A stretch of DNA of 64,000 nucleotides from Nitrospiraceae bacterium (GTDB lineage: Bacteria > Nitrospirota > Nitrospiria > Nitrospirales > Nitrospiraceae): positions 103,088 through 167,087 of the forward strand of contig JBFWWG010000010.1 of the NCBI GenBank assembly GCA_050246315.1, given 5' to 3'. Positions 5,790 to 26,852 of the stretch are shown in pieces. A program made the translations under genes and the position numbers. Under the pieces are notes generated by a model, which saw nothing but the letters and a program-made list of their open reading frames with translations, did not search any database and had not been told where the DNA came from. The first letter of the stretch is position 1. Each line of letters opens with the position of its first letter.

Positions 5790-8077
5790 ATGCCGAAGAT
5801 CCGTTTGAAACGATCCCAGAACCCTTCGCCGTGCAATTCACAGTACAGGGTTGGCTCGGTTCCTTCAATAAAGACTTCGCTCACGGATTCCGGGCATCGA
5901 GACGTAGCCAACTGCCCGGTCTGAGGATCGATCGCCTTGGTCACGATCCCGGATGGCACGAGGAAATCAGGCGAGTCGGCAGGAAGCACGTCTTTCATGA
6001 AGTCCGTCCAGATCGGGAGCGCGGCTTGGGCTCCGCTGAGCTTGACCTCTCGTCCGTCGTCAAACCCGACCCAGACGCCGACCACCAGTTCCGGCGTATA
6101 GCCGATGAACCAGGCATCCCGAAACCCGTCCGTGGTGCCGGTCTTGCCGGCTGCTGGATGCGTGAGTCCGAGGGACTTGGCCCGGGCGGCGGTGCCCCGC
6201 TCGACCACCCCCTTCAGCAGCGAGGTGACCAGATAGGCGGCCTGAGGCGAGACGGCCTGTCGGCGGTCCGTGACCGGCTGCCACAGGGGATCGCCGTCCT
6301 GTGCGATCACCTGCCGGAGCCCCGTTGGCCCCATCACGATTCCATCATGGGCCAAGGCGCCGTAACTGCCGGTCATTTCCAACAGCGAGACGGCGGAGCC
6401 GCCCAACGCCAGTGTCAGGTTCTCGTCCAGCGGGCTCTTGACGCCGAGCCCGCGCGCCACTTGCGCGATGCGCCTTACCCCGACAGCTTGGGCCACCCGC
6501 ACCACCGGCACATTCAATGAGTGTTCAATGGCCGCCCGGACTGTGACCTTGCCCCGAAACTGCTTATCGTAATTCTGCGGCGACCAGGTTCCTGCCGGCG
6601 ATTCGAAAGAGACCGGTTCATCGAGCAACAGACTGGCCGCCGTGATGGGTTGACCACCGTCCGTTTGCCTGGACTCGAACGCGGTCAGATAAACCAGCGG
6701 CTTAAACAGCGAGCCAGGCTGCCGCTTGGCCTGGACCGCACGATTGAACTGGCTCGCCCGGTAGTCGCGCCCGCCGACCATCGCGAGGATCTCTCCGCTG
6801 CGGGGATCAAGTGCGACCAGGGCGCCTTGCAGAGGTTCGCCGTGTTTCGTCAAATGCGCATGCGCCTGCTCCAAACGCCCAAGCCCACGCGAGAGGGCCT
6901 CGGCCGCTGTCCGCTGCAAGATCGGGTCGAGCGTCGTGTAGATCCTGGCCCCCGGCGGCAAGGGTTGACCGCTCAATTCTTCGATGCGTCCCATGACATA
7001 GTCCACGAAATAGGGCGCGTCGGCGACCATGTCCTGGGGCGGATGGACCGACAGCGGACGGTTCACGGCCTGCGTCCATTCCGCCTCGGAGAGTTTTCCT
7101 TCCTCCCGCAACCGGCGCAACACAATATCCCGTCGTTGCCGGGCCAGGTCCCGATCCCTGAGCGGTGAGTAGGTATTGGGACCCTTGATCAGGCCGGCGA
7201 TCAGGGCCATTTCATCGATCGACAAATCCTGCAGGGTCTTGCTGAAATAGCTGTTCGCGGCCGCCTCCACCCCGTAGATGCCGACCGATCCAGCCTGCCC
7301 CAAGTAGATTTCGTTCAGGTAGCTCTCCAGGATTTCGTCCTTTTGATACTTGGCCTCCAGGACCAGCGCCGCCATCGCTTCCTGGACCTTGCGCCCGAAC
7401 GTGCGCTTCGGACTGTAGAAGAGGTTCTTGGCCAATTGTTGGGTGATCGTGCTCCCGCCCTGGACGACTCCACCTTTCAGCAGATTGCGCCACAGTGCGC
7501 GCCCCACCGCGATGGGATCGATGCCCGGATGCCAATAGAACCGGTGGTCTTCCACTGCGAGGACCGTCTCGATCAAGCGCGGCGGCATGTCACGGATGGG
7601 AACCCACGAGCGCACCTGGCGGGATTCGCCGCGCAGACCGCTGATCAGTTGCGGCTCGAGCGCCACAGGAAAAGAGGGCACGTCCTGCGGCATGAGCCGC
7701 ACGTCGCTGATGCGAGTCTGATCGAGCACCAGACGAACCAGCGTCGGACTGACGTGCAGGTCCGGCTGCTCGCGCAGAAAGACATCCAACGCGGCGGGAG
7801 TCGGGCGAAATTCGCCGGGCTGGCGCGGTTCATGCGCGACCACATGGTAGCCGAGGCGCCCCAGTCGCTCGATCACGCGAGCCTCCCGAATATCCCGATC
7901 CACCCGGAGCGGGAAGGCCGCCCCGTAAATCAACAGTGGCGGTCGTTCTTCTCCCTTTGGTAAGGTCAGGGTGGTGGCGAGATAGCCGCCGGACAACAGG
8001 AGCATCGAAGTCACCAATGCGATCCCATAGAGGACGGCCGTAAGGCTGCGTGTCGTCCAGCGTGCGAGTCGGGGCAT
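5786..8077 (-). CDS. mrcB: Class A penicillin-binding protein 1B (UB2H, transglycosylase, transpeptidase)
   Basis: EDHRFYWH, GGSTITQQL, RKVQE; transpeptidase motifs SLFK, SLN, KTG; UB2H-like segment LGRLGY...PGEF. Confidence 0.9.
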   Translation of the reverse strand: MPRLARWTTRSLTAVLYGIALVTSMLLLSGGYLATTLTLPKGEERPPLLIYGAAFPLRVDRDIREARVIERLGRLGYHVVAHEPRQPGEFRPTPAALDVFLREQPDLHVSPTLVRLVLDQTRISDVRLMPQDVPSFPVALEPQLISGLRGESRQVRSWVPIRDMPPRLIETVLAVEDHRFYWHPGIDPIAVGRALWRNLLKGGVVQGGSTITQQLAKNLFYSPKRTFGRKVQEAMAALVLEAKYQKDEILESYLNEIYLGQAGSVGIYGVEAAANSYFSKTLQDLSIDEMALIAGLIKGPNTYSPLRDRDLARQRRDIVLRRLREEGKLSEAEWTQAVNRPLSVHPPQDMVADAPYFVDYVMGRIEELSGQPLPPGARIYTTLDPILQRTAAEALSRGLGRLEQAHAHLTKHGEPLQGALVALDPRSGEILAMVGGRDYRASQFNRAVQAKRQPGSLFKPLVYLTAFESRQTDGGQPITAASLLLDEPVSFESPAGTWSPQNYDKQFRGKVTVRAAIEHSLNVPVVRVAQAVGVRRIAQVARGLGVKSPLDENLTLALGGSAVSLLEMTGSYGALAHDGIVMGPTGLRQVIAQDGDPLWQPVTDRRQAVSPQAAYLVTSLLKGVVERGTAARAKSLGLTHPAAGKTGTTDGFRDAWFIGYTPELVVGVWVGFDDGREVKLSGAQAALPIWTDFMKDVLPADSPDFLVPSGIVTKAIDPQTGQLATSRCPESVSEVFIEGTEPTLYCELHGEGFWDRFKRIFGI

Positions 8078-10244: not shown

Positions 10245-10877
10245 TTGCGGGCATTGCGGACCTTGTCACCGGTGATTCCGCCTGTCGCCACCCAGTCGCA
10301 CAGCCTGTCCCGATGGGCGACGATCCTCTCGTTGCTCTCGGCTCTTGCAGGGCCGGCAATCGCCGACGACAATTCGACGGCCAAGACTCAGGGCACGGAG
10401 GCCCCGGCGGAAGCAGAGGGAACGGGGCAAGTCTTCCGGGCGCGCGACCTCAAGGGAGCGTCGGACGTCGGGTTGGAGGGCTGCGCGGCCAATTCGGGGG
10501 AATACACGCTCTGGGTCTATGCCACCGCGGCCGCTTGCGGAGTGCCACGCGAACAAGCCGAGCAAGTCGTGCTGGTGCGCCAACCGCTTCCTGGCGTCGC
10601 GCCCCTTCGGGCCAGAGTCGAGATCTCCGGCGGCACCTATCACCTCTGGGTCTTCGGGTCCGGCGATCCCGGCCACCCTTGGCTTCACATCTGTGGAAAG
10701 ACCTGTGTCATTGGAGAGCTCCCGGGCAAGCCCGAATGGGTCTCGTTCGGACCGATCGAAGTCCGGGATCTTCAGATGATCTTCATCCGCACCAAGGAAG
10801 TGCCCTATGGGCACACGCTTCGCCTCCATGCGATGGTGTTGTCCGCCCACGAAGGTCCACCCGAGTGGGTACCCTAG
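10245..10877 (+). CDS. Hypothetical secreted protein
   Basis: Signal-like segment (WATILSLLSALAGPAIA); start uncertain; stop TAG coincides with the MITE end. Confidence 0.6.
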   Translation: MRALRTLSPVIPPVATQSHSLSRWATILSLLSALAGPAIADDNSTAKTQGTEAPAEAEGTGQVFRARDLKGASDVGLEGCAANSGEYTLWVYATAAACGVPREQAEQVVLVRQPLPGVAPLRARVEISGGTYHLWVFGSGDPGHPWLHICGKTCVIGELPGKPEWVSFGPIEVRDLQMIFIRTKEVPYGHTLRLHAMVLSAHEGPPEWVP

Positions 10878-11121
10878 CCCACATTATTCATGACGGTTCG
10901 TGACGAAACCGACAAGACGCCACGCGTCGGACCCATTGCATGGAGAAGCGCAATGGGTACCCCCACGCGGAGCCCCGAGGGGGCGAAGCATACTTGAAAC
11001 AGTATGTTGAGACCATGAGGGGCGAGCCTACCCGTCAGCATGCGTTCCAAGCCGCATGCTGGCTCGTCGCAGCGGCGTATCGGCGGTTGCAGTAGAAGCG
11101 TTCATGAATAATGTGGGCTAG
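10874..11121. repeat. MITE-like element, family B (intact)
   Basis: Perfect TIR CTAGCCCACATTATTCATGA / TCATGAATAATGTGGGCTAG. Confidence 0.9.
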
Positions 11122-11249
11122 TGTTGTGTCCCGTAAGTTCCGGTAATTATCCGTTCGCACTGAGCGTGTCGAAGGGCGCCCACTTTCAAGGAGTTCCGTT
11201 CATGGTTCGACAGGCTCACCACGAACGAACTTCTGGGACGCAACACTAG
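11118..11249. repeat. REP/MITE-like element, family D
   Basis: TIR CTAGTGTTG.GTCCC / GGGACGCAACACTAG; internal TGAGC.TGTCGAA / TTCGACAGGCTCA arms; shares CTAG with the preceding element. Confidence 0.75.
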
Positions 11250-11275
11250 GAGGGTGTTGAAAAAGACCGCCGAGG

Positions 11276-13976: not shown

Positions 13977-14781
13977 CCTCCGTTCTCCTCCATCCGGACA
14001 ACACGCAACGTTGGGCGATCAAAGGGGCAAAGCTGGATAAATCGTCGGATACCGGCTTCATCACCGCCTCTGCCAGTCGCGCATCCTCGAAACATTCGTA
14101 GACATCGTCGAGAAAGCCACCGCGCAGCAATGGATGATGGAGGAACGCTGGACCCGAGCCGGTGGGGACTTCAAGCGGCCACTCGGCCACAGTGATGCGT
14201 TCAAGCTTCGCCGCCTCCAGCCACTTCCGCCCCTCCTGTGCGGAGGGTCGCTCCGCGACATAGTCCGCCAGCCGTTGCCGCTCGGCCTTCAATCCCCTCT
14301 CGGTCATTTCCCGATCGATCCGGCGCCAGAGTGAATCGAACGTGCCGAGCGAGGGAAAGGTCAACACCAGTTGGCCACCCGGCTTGAGATGGGAAACCAG
14401 ACCGGAGACGACCGCAGGGCGGTCCGGACGAAAGAACATCACCGAGAGGTTGCCGGTAATGCGATCGAATGCGGGCAGGTCTCTGGGCAAGGCTCGCATA
14501 TCCAGACACTCGAAGCGGAGCCAGGGCAGATGCGACCGTTGAATTGCCCGTGCGCCCGCGACTTGCCGCTCGCTCAAATCGATGCCGAGAACGGCTCCCG
14601 TCGGACCGACCTGCTCGGCCACATGGAAGGCCGGAATTCCATCACCGGAGGCAATGTCGAGGACCGTCGCGCCAGGGAAGAGATCCAGATGGTAGAGCAA
14701 CAGCTCGGCGAATGGAGTGGACCAGTAGTCGTCGGGCGGAAGCGCCCATCGTGATCCGACATCATGCACCGGCTTGCGCAT
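13885..14781 (-). CDS. Class I SAM-dependent methyltransferase
   Basis: VLDIASGDG, LKPGGQL; the 3' end overlaps the next gene by 92 nt. Confidence 0.85.
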   Translation of the reverse strand: MRKPVHDVGSRWALPPDDYWSTPFAELLLYHLDLFPGATVLDIASGDGIPAFHVAEQVGPTGAVLGIDLSERQVAGARAIQRSHLPWLRFECLDMRALPRDLPAFDRITGNLSVMFFRPDRPAVVSGLVSHLKPGGQLVLTFPSLGTFDSLWRRIDREMTERGLKAERQRLADYVAERPSAQEGRKWLEAAKLERITVAEWPLEVPTGSGPAFLHHPLLRGGFLDDVYECFEDARLAEAVMKPVSDDLSSFAPLIAQRCVLSGWRRTEDDEQRTIGVRLSTGEGSEGAGATPRHRAGD

Positions 14782-14904
14782 GGTTCGACTTCCCTTCAGA
14801 AGGACTTAGCCTGCATTATTCACGAGGATTCGTGACGAAACCGCCAAGACGCCACGCGAGACGGGCACGCGGAGCCGTGAGAACCCGAGCACCTGTCTTG
14901 ATTG

Positions 14905-15854
<950 letters not shown>

Positions 15855-15870
15855 CGCCGCCTCCTTGGTG

Positions 15871-16020
15871 AAGCCCGTCCTTGTCCTGATGCGGGCTCGA
15901 TGGCCCAGGCAACTGTTCGGGCTTGTGGTAGGAGGAACGTGACGACCCGGCTCGGCCACGGTCTCTGCGGACCGGAGGCATATCGATCTATCACGTTCCG
16001 TGGGTCTCATGTATCACACT
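15871..16020 (-). ncRNA. Predicted IS110 bridge RNA
   Basis: Two stem-enclosed internal loops: GGAACGTGA/TCACGTTCC holding target guides GATATGCCT and CCGAG; AAGCCCG/CGGGCTT holding donor guides ACAGTTGCC and ACAAG; ends approximate. Confidence 0.82.
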
Positions 16021-16282
16021 TTCAAGATACAAGGCATACGTGAAACAGCATGTTGACCGACCGAGCAGCGAGCCCTCCCGCCTGGCCGTGTGAAAACCAC
16101 GGCCAGGCTTGTCGTAGCGGCGAATGCACGGTTGCAGTAGAAGTCATCGTGAATAATGCGGATTAGGAGCATACCGCATCGTCGCGCGGACACCATGCGA
16201 ACTGTTGAGCCGACCTGTTGGGATGGAACGATGAATGAACCTTCCGTTGATTTCTTCATCCGAGCCAACGAGCGCGTTTCTT

Positions 16283-16344
16283 CGTATCTGATCCGATACG
16301 AGGCCGTATCGGATCAGATACGAACGTGTATTGCATCCGATACG
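16283..16344. promoter_or_regulatory. Three phased palindromic sites (YGTATY-N6-GATACG), candidate enhancer/UAS
   Basis: Sites start at 16283, 16305 and 16327 (22-bp period); the first two lie within a perfect 20-bp inverted repeat. Confidence 0.6.
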
Positions 16345-16474
16345 GTTACGCATTGCAGAGGTGTGCCGAGGTGTACTCACTCCCCTTCACACGGTTTCCC
16401 AAGTCTCGACAAATCAGTCAGTTCCATATGTATGCATTTCGCGATTTCTGATTGCCATATTAGAGGATCGACAA

Positions 16475-16490
16475 TGGCAAGATGCTTGCT
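16475..16490 (+). promoter_or_regulatory. Sigma54 -24/-12 promoter
   Basis: TGGCAAGATGCTTGCT, matching TGGCA...TTGC with GG-N10-GC spacing, upstream of the protease operon. Confidence 0.65.
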
Positions 16491-16734
16491 CACTCCAGCA
16501 GCACGCGCATCTCACTCACTGGTGCACCGATGGCTCGCAGATGATCTGGTGTGTCCCATCTCGTATTTGTCACATCGCTCAGATACGCATGCTCCTTCAC
16601 CCTTCGCTAAATACGGTGGGAGAGGAAGAATCGGTGATGTGTTCTCGATCACGGTGCCCACCATTGCGCCTGATGTTGCGAGAACAAGCCGGCAAGAGCG
16701 CCAAGTTGCGACGTAGCCGAATCACGAGAAGGAG

Positions 16735-17016
16735 GTGGTGATAGTGCAAGTGATCATTCAGGTTTCCACGGATGTGGCGCTTAAACTTCACCAACGCGCG
16801 CCGCCTGCTTCAGAAACAGAGTCGCTCCTGCGGGTGATCGTGGCATTGGGTCTCACCCTGCAACCAATGCACCCTCATACGAATGATCCTAATCTCCAGC
16901 GCTATTTCATTGTGGAGGTGCTGGACCATGCAACCGCCCAGCAAGTGATGGACCGTCTCAGGCAAGTGCAAGCGGTCGAAGCGGCATATGTTAAGCCGCA
17001 AGATGAGTCCCCTTAA
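16735..17016 (+). CDS. Stand-alone subtilase pro-domain-like (inhibitor I9-like) protein
   Basis: AGGAGG RBS (start may be GTG 16744); shares G.TL.P, P.L..Y..VE and EAAYVKP with the N-terminus of the downstream S8. Confidence 0.75.
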   Translation: MVIVQVIIQVSTDVALKLHQRAPPASETESLLRVIVALGLTLQPMHPHTNDPNLQRYFIVEVLDHATAQQVMDRLRQVQAVEAAYVKPQDESP

Positions 17017-17049
17017 CGAGTAGTCGATTAATCAAAAGGAGTGCTGACT

Positions 17050-18861
17050 ATGGCTAAGTCCCCAAGGACAGGAAATCCCGTATCAGCCGGGACTTCACCG
17101 CCCCCTGAAGACCTGATGGGAAAACGTGAACTCGTGATCGTGGGAAAGCGTGAACTCGGCCTGCATGCAAGTAGGGAGGCTGTGGCTTCCGTTACCGGAG
17201 CGGATGTTAGTCGCCTAGCAGAATTACTGACATCCGAAGGAGTCACCTTGGAGCCGTTGTTTGGGATGAGCGAGGAGCGGCTTCAAGCCCAGGCCGCCGC
17301 GCTGGCCGCAGAAACGGGAGCGGATGTACCCGATCTATCGGTTTACTACCATGTTGAAGCCCCCGATGACCGTCTCGATGCCCTCGCAGAGCGATTTCAG
17401 CGGCTAGAGGGGATCGAGGCCGCATATGTGAAGCCGGCGGCGGAACCGGCGGAGTTTAGATTCAATGATATGGCTCCACAAACGGGAGAGCCGCCGACAC
17501 ACTCTCCTGATTTCACAGCACGTCAGGGTTATCTTGGCGCGAGTCCGGTGGGGATCGAAGCCCAGTATGCTTGGACCGTGCCTGGTGGACGTGGCCCTGG
17601 GGTCAATATCATCGACATTGAGTGGGGCTGGCGGTTTACCCACGAAGATTTGACCCAAAATCAAGGGGGCGTGGTCTCAGGAACCAACTCACCTGATGAC
17701 AACCATGGAACTGCCGTACTCGGTGAATTCAGCGGCGACCGCAACGCATTCGGCATCACGGGTATCGCCCCGGACGCCCACGCAAGCGCGGTGTCCCTGG
17801 TTACGCACAGCACAGCGCAAGCCATTCGCATTGCGGCTGACCGGTTGCGGCCGGGAGACATCATCCTGCTGGAAGTACACCGACCAGGCCCTCGGGCGCC
17901 GAGTGGGAGCGGCCAATTCGGTTTCATCGCTATCGAATGGTGGCCCGATGACTTCGATGCGATTCGCTACGCGGTGAGTAAGGGCATCATTGTCGTCGAG
18001 GCGGCTGGTAATGGCGGCCAAAACCTCGACGACCCCGTTTACAACACTCGTCCAGCTGGATTCCCTGCCACTTGGAGAAACCCTTTCAACCCGGCCAATC
18101 CCAGTTCCGGAGCCGTGGTCGCTGGAGCGGGCATGCCTCCTACTGGTACACATGGTAGGAATCGCCACCCCGGTTGGGGAGACGTTTACGCTGACCGGGG
18201 GCGCTGCTTCTTTTCCAACCATGGTGCGAGGGTTGACGCCCAGGGGTGGGGATGGGAGGTGACGACAACTGGTTATGGCGACCTTCAAGGAGGATCTAAT
18301 CGGAACGAATGGTACACTGATCAGTTCAGCGGCACCTCCAGCGCCTCACCTATCGTGGTGGGGACGTTGGCTTCTGTGCAAGGGGTCCTGCGAACCCATG
18401 GCAGAATTCCCCTGAGTCCTGCCAGAGCCATCGAATTACTGCGGGCTACCGGCTCACCTCAACAGGACGGTCCGGCATTTACTTTCATCCCCAACATGAC
18501 GGGCACTGGATATCCACAGAACCATCCGGTCCGTCCAAACACCCAGCGCATCGGCAATCGTCCCAACCTGCGACAACTGATCGCCCGCGCCTTGGATACA
18601 AGGATGTGGGTCGGCGTTCAGTTCACCGGCACGATCCCGGCTAATCAAACTCAGCGTTGGTTCACCTTCAACTGGCCAGCGCATTGGCACGTGGTGTGGA
18701 CAGTTGTCCCAACTAGCCCGCGACTTGGCGCACCACAAATTGAGTGGAAAGTGCAGGTCGAGCGTGCGTCCGATCCGTTCATCACTTACTGGATCAGTAT
18801 TACAAACCTGACACCGGTTCCGGTCACCATCGAAGCACGTTTCGCCGTGCTCGGCTGGTAG
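17050..18861 (+). CDS. S8 family subtilisin-like serine protease with pro-domain and C-terminal Trp-rich beta domain
   Basis: AAAGGAG RBS; IIDIEWG (Asp), NHGTAVLG (His), AAGNG (oxyanion Asn), FSGTSSASP (Ser); no signal peptide seen. Confidence 0.93.
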   Translation: MAKSPRTGNPVSAGTSPPPEDLMGKRELVIVGKRELGLHASREAVASVTGADVSRLAELLTSEGVTLEPLFGMSEERLQAQAAALAAETGADVPDLSVYYHVEAPDDRLDALAERFQRLEGIEAAYVKPAAEPAEFRFNDMAPQTGEPPTHSPDFTARQGYLGASPVGIEAQYAWTVPGGRGPGVNIIDIEWGWRFTHEDLTQNQGGVVSGTNSPDDNHGTAVLGEFSGDRNAFGITGIAPDAHASAVSLVTHSTAQAIRIAADRLRPGDIILLEVHRPGPRAPSGSGQFGFIAIEWWPDDFDAIRYAVSKGIIVVEAAGNGGQNLDDPVYNTRPAGFPATWRNPFNPANPSSGAVVAGAGMPPTGTHGRNRHPGWGDVYADRGRCFFSNHGARVDAQGWGWEVTTTGYGDLQGGSNRNEWYTDQFSGTSSASPIVVGTLASVQGVLRTHGRIPLSPARAIELLRATGSPQQDGPAFTFIPNMTGTGYPQNHPVRPNTQRIGNRPNLRQLIARALDTRMWVGVQFTGTIPANQTQRWFTFNWPAHWHVVWTVVPTSPRLGAPQIEWKVQVERASDPFITYWISITNLTPVPVTIEARFAVLGW

Positions 18862-18898
18862 CGCAGCGTGCGATCAATCTTTTGAAAGGAGCACTGTC

Positions 18899-19153
18899 AT
18901 GAGAGTCGGAGTGCAATTTACGGGAACCATTCCAGCAGGAGCTACTAGCCGCTGGTTCACCCACAGCTGGCCGCAGGCATGGCATGTTGCGTGGTACGTC
19001 GTGCCCACCTCGCCGAGGGTCGGCGCACCGCAGATCGAATGGAGCACGGCGGTGGAGCGGGCTTCCAGCACCCATATCACATACTGGATCACGATTAAGA
19101 ACCTCACCTCGACACCCGTCAATATCGAAGCCCGTTATGCCATATTCAATTGA
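18899..19153 (+). CDS. 84-aa stand-alone paralog of the S8 C-terminal domain
   Basis: AAAGGAG RBS; ungapped hand alignment to the S8 tail gives 58/84 identical residues. Confidence 0.88.
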   Translation: MRVGVQFTGTIPAGATSRWFTHSWPQAWHVAWYVVPTSPRVGAPQIEWSTAVERASSTHITYWITIKNLTSTPVNIEARYAIFN

Positions 19154-19165
19154 AAGGAGGCCTCG

Positions 19166-19450
19166 ATGCGCATCATTATTGAACCCGCCGAGCAAGGACG
19201 CACGGCAACTCCCTCATACGAGCCGACACACCCCGTCCATGTGGAAACAGTCGATGGCGGGGCTCCATCTCATACGCTTACACAAACCGTCGAGGAGACA
19301 CTACCTCTACCAATGGCAATGGAGAGAGAAGGAATGAGTGCTGGCTCCCCGCCTGAATGGTTGTTGAAAGCTATCCAGGGCTCAGCGCAACCTTCCACGG
19401 CGGGTTCGGGCATGGACACCGATGCGGGGAGTGCACCCAACGAGCGATAG
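19166..19450 (+). CDS. Small low-complexity protein with three (D/S)(G/A)G(A/S)(A/P) motifs
   Basis: AAAGGAGG RBS directly after the previous stop; motifs VDGGAPS, MSAGSPP, TDAGSAP. Confidence 0.72.
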   Translation: MRIIIEPAEQGRTATPSYEPTHPVHVETVDGGAPSHTLTQTVEETLPLPMAMEREGMSAGSPPEWLLKAIQGSAQPSTAGSGMDTDAGSAPNER

Positions 19451-19719
19451 AGAGAGGGACGCATCGAGATAAGGATGGGAGGGCCATCTGCACCGCCAGG
19501 AAGACACGGCGAATGGGGCCCCGTCATTCCGAATTGATCGGGTGAGGACGACCCGCTGCAGAAGCAGCACGTTCGGGCCTCCAGCGTCTGAGCCGTATGG
19601 AAGAGCAGTGAGCCAGCGTTTCATCCACGGGAGAGGATGGAGAACACACCGTGAAGAAACCAATTACGAAGAAAGCATCGATAATCAGGACACCTCCACA
19701 GAAGAAAGGAGCAAATGCC

Positions 19720-20772
19720 ATGAAGCTAGATGAGACGAAGATGGTGTTGTCGGAGTCGGCCAACGCGGAGGCAAAAAAAGCACAGAGGGCCGCCGAAACC
19801 GAGTTCCTGGACCCCGAGAGGGCTCGGGGCAATGTCGTTGGCATGGGAGTGGGCGTCAAGTGGAAAAATGGGCAGCCCACAGGAGAGCCCGCCCTTGTGG
19901 TACTGGTAACCCAGAAGTTGGAAAAGAGTCAGGTGAGAGCCGCTGACCTCGTGCCAGCCAAATTGGCAGAGATGCAAACCGATGTGCTCACCGTCGGATA
20001 CCCCTTCGCTGGCGGCGGGAACGACTCGCTGGAGGTCGGTGCCCAGACGCTGGCTAAACGCATCCGACCGGCGGAAGGCGGCTACAGTGTGGGACATTTT
20101 AAGATCACGGCGGGGACGATCGCCACTTGTGTTTACGATATCTTGCCAGGAGGCTCCATCAGCCCACCAGCGCATGGGATTGGCGTCCCACACCACTACT
20201 ACATTCTCAGCAACAACCATGTTCTGGCGAACAGCAATGCGGCTTCTATTGGCGACCCCATCCTGCAGCCCGGCCCCTTCGACGGCGGCACATTCCCGGC
20301 GGATCTCATCGCCCGCCTAAGCCGGTTCATTCCCATCGACCTAACTCCTGCGGTCCCCCTCGCTCACCACAACAACCTGGTCGATGCCGCTGTGGCCGCA
20401 GGGGAGTTCCACGATCTGGACAGGGAAATCTATTGGACCGGTTATGTCCGAGGTTGGCGACCGAAAGCACACGTGACGGTCGGGACGATTGTGCAAAAGA
20501 CTGGGCGTACCACGAACTACACAACCGGGCGCATCACAGCAATCAACGCCACTGTCGATGTCAACTATGGTGGTGGGAGGATCGGGCGGTTCAAAGACCA
20601 GATCGTGACGACTAACATCTCAGCTGGCGGTGACTCGGGGTCGTTGGTAACCACACTGGACGATGTGGCAGTGGGGTTACTATATGCGGGTTCTACGGCA
20701 GCAACCATCCTCAACCAGATTGAAAACGTGCGCGCGCTGCTGCGGGTGGAGGTGGCAGAAACAATAGCGTGA
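19720..20772 (+). CDS. Nal1-like trypsin-fold (S1) serine protease with N-terminal pro-domain
   Basis: AAAGGAG RBS; NVVGMGVG pro-domain; TAGTI, LSNNHVLA (His), VDAAVA (Asp), KTGRTT, GDSGS (Ser); no signal peptide seen. Confidence 0.88.
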   Translation: MKLDETKMVLSESANAEAKKAQRAAETEFLDPERARGNVVGMGVGVKWKNGQPTGEPALVVLVTQKLEKSQVRAADLVPAKLAEMQTDVLTVGYPFAGGGNDSLEVGAQTLAKRIRPAEGGYSVGHFKITAGTIATCVYDILPGGSISPPAHGIGVPHHYYILSNNHVLANSNAASIGDPILQPGPFDGGTFPADLIARLSRFIPIDLTPAVPLAHHNNLVDAAVAAGEFHDLDREIYWTGYVRGWRPKAHVTVGTIVQKTGRTTNYTTGRITAINATVDVNYGGGRIGRFKDQIVTTNISAGGDSGSLVTTLDDVAVGLLYAGSTAATILNQIENVRALLRVEVAETIA

Positions 20773-20797
20773 GAACTCGAGCAGACAGAGCGGTTGC

Positions 20798-20987
20798 CTA
20801 GGAGCCTGTCTGACATTGCCGTTCGTGACGAGGCGAGGGAGGTGCGGTCAGATGCAAGGCCGCAGGCCCGGAAAAACCGGAGGCGTATTCGCTGGAATAC
20901 GTTGAGGAGTTTTCCGGGCCGAGAACGACGCAGATGGTTGCACATCGTTCGCCGCAGTAGAAAGGTCAAGGTCAGGCAGACTCCTAG
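20798..20987. repeat. MITE-like element, family A
   Basis: CTAGGAGCCTGTCTGAC ... GTCAGGCAGACTCCTAG. Confidence 0.85.
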
Positions 20988-21237
20988 TAAATGAGGCGAG
21001 CTGCGGTACGTTCCGTGCCGGGGGAGATACAAGGTCGTGCAGGTGAGTGGCCTGCCTGAATGGACTCGGTCGGGCTGATGTTTGCCTGACAAGGCGGCAT
21101 GGCATTGCACATCGCATGATCAGGACCCTGGCGGCCCTAGGAATGAGAGTGGTAGGATACAAGAGAGTTGATCGAGGCTTGGGGGACTGGCCTGATGCTG
21201 TCCTCCAAGCGTCGAATTCTTGTTGATGGAATCTACC

Positions 21238-21591
21238 ATGGGATGTGCATGGGTTCGCGCAGCGTTCCTTACGCTCCTCGCCTCTCTCGGGCTGACAGAG
21301 GGAATTGCGTCGGAGGGAGGAGAGCCATCCAAGGAGGAAACCGCGATGCCGGATCAGTCACAGGAAGTCGGCCGTCCCAAAGCCACGATCGAGGCCGTCC
21401 GAGCTCGCAACGAAGGTAGTCTGATGGCCATTGAAGGAGTTGTTGGAATTGGGATTGGCCGGACTGCCAGCGGGGACGACGCCGTAGTAATCTACCTGCG
21501 TGATGAATCGGTGCGCCAGCGTGTGCCTGCCGCGATAGAAGGATATCCCCTGGAAATCGTTGTCACTGGCGGGATTGACGCGCAGCGCTGA
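21238..21591 (+). CDS. Stand-alone Nal1-type pro-domain-like protein
   Basis: LMAIEGVVGIGIG...AVVIYL...VPAAIEGYP resembles the N-terminus of 19720-20772; alternative start ATG 21346 has AAGGAGG. Confidence 0.7.
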   Translation: MGCAWVRAAFLTLLASLGLTEGIASEGGEPSKEETAMPDQSQEVGRPKATIEAVRARNEGSLMAIEGVVGIGIGRTASGDDAVVIYLRDESVRQRVPAAIEGYPLEIVVTGGIDAQR

Positions 21592-21918
21592 GCCGAAAAC
21601 CCGGAGGCTCCTTGGCTTTTCACGGGTTGGAGGGTATGGTTTGCCGAAAATCCAGATCGCCAGCAACCGCTCAGGGATGGGTCTTGTGCGCGACGCTCGT
21701 TGAGATATCCAGTGCACACAGGCCCATCATTCCTCCGAACCAGAAAGAGGAAGTCAGAACTAGGCTAGGAGGTCGTCCTTCAATCTGCACAGCACAGTCG
21801 AGAAGCCTGATCGTTCGGACTCCTCAACGAGGTAACCCGCGGTTACTCTCACGACCATCCACCCGGTGGCTAATTCCAAAGATGCCTCCTGCCCCGTTTC
21901 TCCGTATCTCATTCTTGG

Positions 21919-22011
21919 GGAGCGGCCTGGTTGGTGCCCCATTGCGCGCATCCAACGAGGGCCTTCTCAGGCCGCGCGTTGTGCGAGCACAGGACACCAA
22001 CCAGGCCGCTC
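21919..22011. repeat. Interspersed repeat, family E
   Basis: GAGCGGCCTGGTTGGTG ... CACCAACCAGGCCGCTC arms; core CCA.TGCGCGCA ... TGTGCGAGCACAG recurs at 26276-26630, 26853-27143, 52330-52680, 53790-53972. Confidence 0.75.
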
Positions 22012-26721: not shown

Positions 26722-26849
26722 GCAGGCTGTTCAGAAAGGCCGTCCAGCAAGGCCGCAGCGAGCGAAGTGGCGAATCGTACTCTCTGCCGTACGTTGAGCC
26801 TCTAAGCGACGCGAGAACGCCGCTGGCGGACTTTGTCAACAGCCTGCTA
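26722..26849. repeat. MITE/REP-like element, family C
   Basis: GCAGGCTGTT.A.AAAG ... CTTTGTCAACAGCCTGC arms; homologous to 3527-3656. Confidence 0.75.
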
Positions 26850-26852
26850 GAA

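Follow-up and report, generated by a model that had tools for sequence, protein, structure and literature searches.

Free-standing prodomain inhibitors are known for a few eukaryotic subtilases. Yeast PBI2 and Pleurotus POIA1 are inhibitors of this stand-alone kind resembling subtilisin propeptides. In Plasmodium, the propeptide-like inhibitor SUB1-ProM is a separate protein whose gene neighbours those of subtilases (PMC6993865). In this study, we analyzed a locus within a 64,000-nucleotide (nt) stretch of a Nitrospiraceae genome (GenBank assembly GCA_050246315.1, contig JBFWWG010000010.1, positions 103,088 to 167,087 of the forward strand; hereafter the window), in which an S8 subtilase and a NAL1-like S1 serine protease each stand beside free copies of their own non-catalytic domains. 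The S8 part resembles the SUB1-ProM arrangement in having a small free prodomain homologue beside a subtilase, here the 93-amino-acid (aa) protein p93, which by analogy may be a tight trans inhibitor. Unlike in that system, the S8 protease keeps its cis prodomain, lacks a signal peptide and belongs to a prokaryotic four-gene cassette with two more partners, p84 and p94.

The succession of prodomain, subtilase and C-terminal jelly roll or P-domain is shared with Tk-SP of Thermococcus kodakarensis (3afg, 9ues) and with kexin and furin, but these are secreted or lumenal enzymes, with neither a free jelly roll nor a p94-like partner. Bacillus Isp1 with its all-beta inhibitor IPI (PMC3901451) likewise presents a cytoplasmic subtilase under a small all-beta protein; p84, however, is a paralogue of the protease's own C-terminal domain, and IPI was not among the 50 p84 matches listed by a wide fold search. 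The S8-PTS of Gram-positive bacteria also includes an S8 peptidase among genes of a conflict type, but that peptidase carries a signal peptide and acts for a distinct, secreted polymorphic toxin that comes with an immunity protein (PMC9424270). These features do not occur here, and no toxin/immunity pair was conserved near S8 among the surveyed loci. PMC8195603 mentions neither subtilisin nor FG-GAP. A relative of the S1 protease is rice NARROW LEAF 1 (NAL1; 7y77, 8pmm and others), whose ATP-binding domain spans residues 89-172 (PMC12012508); the S1 N-domain matches inside this domain and is likewise followed by a serine protease domain. Compared to NAL1, the S1 similarity is weak and its protease domain is nearer to the Streptomyces griseus/alpha-lytic type, while NAL1 itself has no known free-standing N-domain partner and an ATP-mediated hexameric cage could be proposed for S1 by analogy.

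A description of either cassette was not found in the literature searched, which lay mostly outside subscription journals and came without supplements. Among the locus proteins, Pfam recognised only the two proteases, NCBIfam gave distant subtilase matches and none for the small proteins, and PADLOC-DB 2.0 gave nothing above chance (sole match TniQ, E 0.04). A previous reading of the sequence alone (the sequence-only reading) had not recognised the architecture as a named system, and no such name emerged from PADLOC, Pfam, NCBIfam or the literature searched.

The locus comprises six open reading frames (ORFs) on the + strand within positions 16735..21591, in the order p93, S8, p84, p94, S1 and p123, as previously claimed. 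The strong ribosome-binding sites attributed to most of these genes were seen as Shine-Dalgarno-like sites 5' of p93, S8, p84, p94 and S1, but these sites suggest starts for p93 (GTG 16744), S8 (ATG 17050) and S1 (ATG 19720) that make the genes slightly shorter. We favour a reading in which two separate, horizontally acquired cassettes (p93-S8-p84-p94 and S1-p123) adjoin in a strain-specific segment, their latent cytoplasmic proteases being held by trans copies of their own domains; the chance that it holds as a whole is, in our view, about even. It is built on homologies, folds, conserved gene order, co-variation, patchy distribution and separate occurrence.

The S8 gene (17041..18861, +) encodes a protein that matches Pfam Peptidase_S8 (PF00082) with 44 bits (cut-off 21.8, E 2.3e-11). 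Its D192, H222, N324 (the oxyanion Asn) and S433, the last within GTSSASP, are invariant across 42 sequences, which bears out the intact catalytic triad noted before; in line with the earlier remark on the signal peptide, no hydrophobic N-terminus was seen by eye. From its N-terminus on, the protein consists of a domain resembling a prodomain (residues ~27-139), the catalytic domain (~155-519) and a beta jelly roll at the C-terminus (~522-606; nt 18604-18858). Its AlphaFold2 model (predicted local distance difference test, pLDDT, 84.3) shows the subtilisin fold, with StmPr1 (9goi) matched at Z 32.9 and a root-mean-square deviation (rmsd) of 2.7 over 282 aligned residues. Residues 29-519 of the model align to unautoprocessed pro-Tk-subtilisin (2e1p, 2z2z, 3wiu; 337-343 residues aligned, Z 31.6-31.9) and to pro-subtilisin E, and residues 155-606 to furin and Kex2 (Z about 30.6). 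Because the model aligns to both the pro-subtilisins and furin/Kex2, S8 can be described as a subtilase with a prodomain in front of its catalytic domain and a P-domain-like jelly roll behind it.

Upstream of S8, p93 (16735..17016, +) is a paralogue of this N-domain. On its own, the p93 sequence gives a weak alignment to S8 residues 53-135 (24% identity, E 3e-6), and at family level its 41-member alignment matches residues 27-139 of the S8 family (hhalign 98.3%, E 1.2e-14), which agrees with the proposal that the 93-aa protein copies the S8 pro-domain. The C-terminal ends are also alike, with AAYVKPQDESP in p93, AAYVKPAAEP in the S8 prodomain and AAY-x-K-P common to both. Since the S8 N-domain sits in the fold model like an I9 propeptide, a role of p93 as inhibitor or chaperone is plausible, its link to I9 being transitive, via the S8 N-domain.

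The third gene, p84 (18899..19153, +), is a free copy of the S8 C-terminal jelly roll, as had been proposed: 57 of 82 residues (70%) are identical to S8 residues 524-605 (E 1e-37). Its model is a confident six-strand sandwich (pLDDT 94.1). While Foldseek against the PDB returned nothing at E <= 0.001, a wide fold search ranked the C-terminal jelly roll of Tk-SP first (9ues_B, Z 8.3; 3afg_B, Z 8.1; rmsd 2.5, 75 residues aligned). Likenesses to lectin-like pyocin fibre tips (Z 6.1-6.5) and, in the Atlas, to H-type lectin clusters (feature score 0.85) stand at the level of leads; the Atlas search with p84 and p94 returned only unnamed clusters. In a tree of jelly rolls, free and fused copies fall into mostly separate clades, with exceptions in Haloferax and flavobacteria: three label changes were counted, compared to 9.1 on average after shuffling, and none of 500 shuffles gave so low a number. 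The duplication is therefore old, with both copies kept.

The fourth protein, p94 (19166..19450, +), is acidic and probably disordered (Atlas model pLDDT 0.27, nearest clusters all "hypothetical"). Its N-terminus, M-R-I-x-I-E, is strand-like, and the D(A/G)GxxP motif occurs three times, with W-L-x-x-A-I behind the second occurrence. Of the 33 loci in the p84 ORF cluster, 28 have a further ORF whose start lies no more than about 250 nt 3' of p84 (mostly 10-40 nt); 23 of these 28 ORFs were aligned with the window p94 and the other five left out. By eye, 20/23 share an M-x-I-x-I-E start and three D(A/G)GxxP motifs, again with W-L-x-x-A-I after the second. The alignment A4 unites these 20 sequences with the window p94, so that the repeat motif ascribed to the 94-aa peptide is real and conserved. 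The ORFs in loci L029, L077 and in part L076 are seemingly unrelated to p94. In two proteins (P0123, P0148), the p94 mid-motif is fused behind a jelly roll. A predicted complex of p94 with S8 residues 140-606 and p84 gave an ipSAE of 0.01, which is uninformative either way given the uncertain p94 fold and a run without controls. A scheme in which p94 would bring many jelly-roll enzymes together, as cohesin and dockerin do, was rejected, because in four of the five genomes searched the domain is present just twice, once fused and once free. In Haloferax mediterranei plasmid pHME505 (L170), a gap of ~500 nt without annotation (7255-7758) follows p84 at the site expected for a p94-like gene, with an Hsp20 gene further downstream.

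In order to assess recurrence, we scanned a single genome for each species; of the 115 S8 relatives obtained, the best 80 loci were kept. Hosts include Nitrospira, Bacteroidota, Actinomycetota, Planctomycetota, Acidobacteriota, Pseudomonadota, Cyanobacteria, Haloferax and a Methanotrichaceae archaeon, and the window S8 is 76-80% identical to proteins of Lunatibacter (Bacteroidota), Thiomonas and the Methanotrichaceae record. Among the S8 genes with a jelly-roll C-domain, 35/42 are followed by a free p84, compared to 0/38 of those without one, which end in FG-GAP propellers, DUF346 repeats or nothing. A small ORF matching the p93 hidden Markov model lies in 53/80 S8 loci, and tblastn adds L012, L071 and L072; besides p93, p84 and p94, neighbours recur in at most six loci. 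These counts substantiate the pairing of the 93-aa and 84-aa genes with S8 in other genomes. In L018, L025, L035 (S8 of ~890-930 aa), L013 and L023, FG-GAP or DUF346 beta-propellers replace the jelly roll and p84 is absent, with a p93-like gene mostly upstream.

The second cassette begins, after a 270-nt gap behind p94, with the S1 gene (19651..20772, +). Its product falls just below the Pfam cut-offs for both Trypsin_2 (27.0 bits, cut-off 27.6) and NAL1_N (25.8 bits, cut-off 27), while H190, D245 and S329 are invariant across 39 sequences, in line with the intact His/Asp/Ser triad reported by the sequence-only reading. By sequence, the protease domain is nearest to the Glu-specific protease of Streptomyces griseus (E 2e-6) and to the alpha-lytic type. 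N-domain residues 62-106 match NAL1 residues 112-155 in NAL1 chains, weakly (E 0.002-0.03), whereas Pfam Nal1_C (PF25819) matched neither the window S1 nor anything else in its own genome. The label "Nal1-like" thus refers to a borderline N-domain similarity. Nal1_C is a poor probe for this S1 family because it missed the window's own gene, and the figure of 2 of 200 that it gave is therefore not taken as a frequency.

Behind S1 lies a miniature inverted-repeat transposable element (MITE)-like repeat of ~190 nt (20798..20987), with 28 matches in its own genome, of which 12 extend over about 167-213 bases, and numerous copies in three same-genus genomes; the MITE placed earlier between S1 and the last ORF is thus real. 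That ORF, p123 (21220..21591, +), matched no Pfam family and was not significantly similar to the S1 N-terminus by BLASTP. At family level, its 37 sequences match S1 N-domain residues 57-126 (hhalign 95.4%, E 1.9e-8), and NAL1_N recognises 28/37 members, the window copy not among them, which supports the view that it is a copy of the Nal1-type pro-domain. The start of p123 has two options: one at 21220-21238, giving a signal-peptide-like N-terminus, and one at ATG 21346 behind AAGGAGG, giving 81 aa. The description of the locus as intracellular is therefore not valid for every part.

A metagenome scan with S1 yielded 78 loci, 79 with L003, many on short contigs. Small + strand ORFs (median 81 aa) form a cluster present in 60/79 of these loci. 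The small NAL1_N-like ORF lies upstream of S1 in 43 (median gap about 26 nt) and downstream in 12, with two copies in eight loci. Signal-like N-termini are absent from the upstream type; in the downstream type the N-terminus is hydrophobic, often with a lipobox-like L-A-G-C or I-T-G-C end (by eye). The window p123 belongs to the downstream type. The window lacks the upstream copy that is usual elsewhere, and a remnant before S1 was looked for and none found. Downstream small ORFs with such N-termini were seen in L090, L092, L095, L096, L098 and L109, beside proteases without one. Taken with the hhalign homologies and the p84 count of 35/42 vs 0/38, these frequencies uphold the central proposal that each protease comes with free-standing copies of its own non-catalytic domains.

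The two cassettes, in turn, are mostly unlinked and are separate modules. A NAL1-like S1 stands near S8 in only 3/80 S8-anchored loci, and a jelly-roll cassette near S1 in 2/78 S1-anchored loci, as raw counts that carry no chance expectation; 77/80 S8 loci and 76/78 S1 loci have no partner cassette, many S1 contigs being short. The expectation that the small genes would co-occur with both proteases elsewhere therefore failed for the protease pair, while it held for each protease with its own small genes, and the small proteins each match their own protease only.

Next, we asked which other proteins carry the jelly roll. At E <= 0.001, an exhaustive HMMER search with p84 gave 227 cluster representatives, in part free-standing proteins of about 84-86 aa and in part longer proteins with the domain at the C-terminus. 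The heads of 46 of the 53 listed representatives of at least 200 aa (omitting P0014, P0015, P0022, P0042, P0084, P0095 and P0099) and of the L103 protein were scanned against Pfam, 47 in all. Peptidases comprised Peptidase_S8 (4/47), Astacin (4/47), Peptidase_M64 (2/47), M36 (1/47), Trypsin (1/47) and NAL1_N (1/47, P0094); further heads were Gln_deamidase_2 (3/47, plus L103), Sortilin/BNR propellers (7/47) and HTH_23/29 (3/47), whereas 3/47 (P0002, P0003, P0054) gave weak matches below the curated cut-off and 17/47 had no family. A signal-like N-terminus was seen, by eye, in 0/12 full-length head proteins examined. The helix-turn-helix (HTH) proteins P0010, P0016 and P0061 (about 200-215 aa) have an N-terminal HTH_23/HTH_29 domain, a low-complexity linker and the jelly roll; given these fusions, the domain also occurs on probable DNA-binding proteins. 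L103 offers a parallel to the S8 cassette, with a free 170-aa ORF, a glutaminase-jelly roll protein, a free p84 and a small ORF in this order. Its 170-aa ORF is 43% identical (E 2e-28) to the N-terminal region of fused glutaminases, as p93 is related to S8; its last small ORF matched p94 by hhalign at 1.5% over the first nine residues only, while by eye it has an MRIxIxIE start and a DAGP motif.

Because the domain is common to many unrelated enzymes, the C-terminal jelly roll probably serves as a handle of general use, be it in regulation, targeting or assembly; it has neither name nor annotation. A bolder proposal, which we hold to be possible but rather improbable, is that the jelly roll, its free copy and the D(A/G)GxxP protein form a portable three-part module on at least nine kinds of signal-peptide-less head (six peptidase families, a protein glutaminase, the BNR propeller and the HTH proteins) that has moved between bacteria and archaea; the window would then represent a new class of self-locked polymorphic effector cassette for conflict or programmed proteolysis, and the NAL1-like pair a second example of the same design.

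The cassettes were probably acquired horizontally, as the S8 identities across phyla and domains, the absence of the jelly roll from the 100 other sampled genomes of the same family (0/100) and the lack of a counterpart in a complete same-genus genome (G024) indicate. In G024, the flanks are syntenic, and window positions ~14065-21931 have no counterpart except for insertion sequence (IS) and MITE copies. The upstream edge of this strain-specific segment is marked by a multi-copy IS110-family element (14805..16166, - strand; transposase ORF 14905-15678, Transposase_20 2.2e-19, DEDD_Tnp_IS110), of which G024 has at least ten near-full copies.

With respect to function, inhibition, binding, localisation and biological role are proposed as follows. 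S8 would be made as a cytoplasmic zymogen whose own N-domain acts as an I9-type prodomain, and autoprocessing would occur near AAYVKP (residues ~128-133), after which p93 may bind the mature protease in trans as a second lock. The co-variation described above and the two fusions P0123 and P0148 suggest that the S8 jelly roll works together with p84 and the disordered p94 as a subcomplex, in which the D(A/G)GxxP motifs are likely docking sites. S1 is a relative of the cage-forming rice NAL1, and its small N-domain copy would probably join or cap the oligomer.

Several observations weigh against this account of latent, self-locked cassettes. Pfam Inhibitor_I9 does not match p93 at E <= 0.1 (sole match ACT_4, 0.0035), and the profile of the p93 family had no significant match in the PDB; the earlier description of an I9-type pro-domain accordingly applies to the fold of the S8 N-domain (Z 31.6-31.9 to pro-Tk-subtilisin) and not to p93 by Pfam or PDB sequence models, and, compared to recognised I9 inhibitors, inhibition by p93 would be a matter of analogy. 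No p93-like ORF was seen in 27/80 S8 loci, some on short contigs, and as about a third of the loci lack it, p93 is not obligatory. The Tk-SP match of p84 lies at the background level of the tool and ties with the GOLD domain 7rrm (Z 8.2). The downstream NAL1_N small protein looks exported, a poor fit with a purely cytoplasmic partner, and the astacin, M36 and M64 head families are usually secreted. Finally, the cassettes are not wholly unrelated, because they are co-located in several arrangements (the window, L003, L034, L058, L103, L148) and joined in the natural fusion P0094 of a NAL1-like protease with a jelly roll; they may share a theme or an insertion habitat.

Among the alternatives, a polymorphic effector cassette for conflict, defence or programmed death survives best, though we consider it unlikely. 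Here, the jelly roll, its free copy and p94 would form a constant sensing, targeting or packaging module, S8 an interchangeable head and p93 an immunity-like lock released on infection or stress. The many head kinds that the jelly roll ends among the 47 scanned proteins, the glutaminase head of L103 with its free N-domain paralogue and free p84, and the patchy transfer of the cassette across domains of life all fit such a system. The 97 immediate large neighbours of S8 that we scanned are mixed: they include several peptidases (a caspase in L005, an astacin in L004, M10 in L006 and S8 in L015 and L029), nuclease fusions (Trypsin_2 with EEP, Exo_endo_phos, at L027:437-2317, and a NAL1-like S1 with Endonuclease_NS at L058:9597-11498) and mobile-element genes (L013, L032, L043), which would suit conflict, but most are metabolic or without family. 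The window flanks are housekeeping-like as well, with ordinary genes for a histidine kinase, PBP1, HtrA, methyltransferases, GT2, RidA and PFK. Against an effector role also speak the absence of a PADLOC match, the absence of p84 from 50,697 phage records and its presence in a single plasmid, the Haloferax mediterranei megaplasmid (filed as two records and annotated as "S8 family peptidase" and "hypothetical protein"). A beta-propeller or HTH would be atypical as an effector, and no nucleoside triphosphatase or sensor core is conserved nearby.

It is quite unlikely that the proteases leave the cell by a signal-peptide-independent route such as lysis or vesicles, acting as bacteriocin-like or nutritional enzymes whose jelly roll binds a target while p93 is a cytoplasmic safeguard, presumably of the staphostatin or Spi type. 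The alternative S8 C-termini (FG-GAP and DUF346 propellers), the usually secreted families among the heads, the lead-level resemblance of p84 to pyocin fibre tips and H-type lectins and the lipobox-like N-termini of downstream NAL1_N copies would agree with export, but the 0/12 head proteins with a signal-like N-terminus and the HTH-jelly roll fusions point to the cytoplasm, and no export or lysis gene is conserved nearby.

The sequence-only reading had proposed one coupled cascade, in which S8 and S1 process or activate one another with the small proteins as shared adaptors. The cassettes do adjoin in the window and, reordered, in L003, the closest relative of the window (76% identity; order small-S1-p93-S8-p84-p94, unlike the window). 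A NAL1-like S1 also adjoins S8 in L034 (Nal1_C E 4.8e-6) and L058 (28% identity, fused to Endonuclease_NS), a jelly-roll cassette is convergent on S1 in L103 and L148 (of which L103 alone was inspected), and P0094 unites both domains in one protein. The proposal is nevertheless not borne out, given the few co-located loci, the altered gene order in L003, the gap between p94 and S1, the MITE inside the S1 unit and small proteins that keep to their own protease, and we regard it as very unlikely. That S8 releases small RiPP-like (ribosomally synthesised and post-translationally modified) or pheromone-like peptides from p94, taken as a precursor with a threefold repeated core, is hardly credible despite its three motifs and conserved place in the S8 operon, as no modification enzyme or transporter is conserved, p94 tracks the jelly roll and not the protease, occurring only after C-domain-bearing genes, and a positional equivalent (of p94 likeness unconfirmed by hhalign) follows the L103 glutaminase cassette.

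Some further features were seen around the cassettes. A ~1,330-1,360-aa protein without Pfam family lies just downstream of the S8 cassette in six flavobacterial loci (e.g. L054:10700-14689), and tyrosinase and DUF7868 proteins flank S8 in two unrelated loci (L019:11433-13004, L034:5966-7516). In the window, short repeats of about 130-250 nt at 10874-11121, 11114-11251 and 26722-26852, distinct from the MITE of the protease locus, have dozens of copies in three same-genus genomes. Promoter and terminator scans of the locus gave counts not above those of shuffled sequence, and at least half of the sampled sequence words were present in eight RNA-labelled runs from three studies, a measure of word presence that makes no claim on transcription or co-transcription.

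Compared to the few eukaryotic subtilases with free-standing prodomain inhibitors, the S8 protease described here is prokaryotic, has no signal peptide and retains its cis prodomain; in addition, it comes with free copies of both its end domains and a conserved disordered partner. The protease occurs in at least 115 species representatives, and some cross-domain pairs are 76-80% identical. The second cassette places NAL1, a protease of interest in rice-yield research, in a bacterial context and points to an N-domain that can act in trans.

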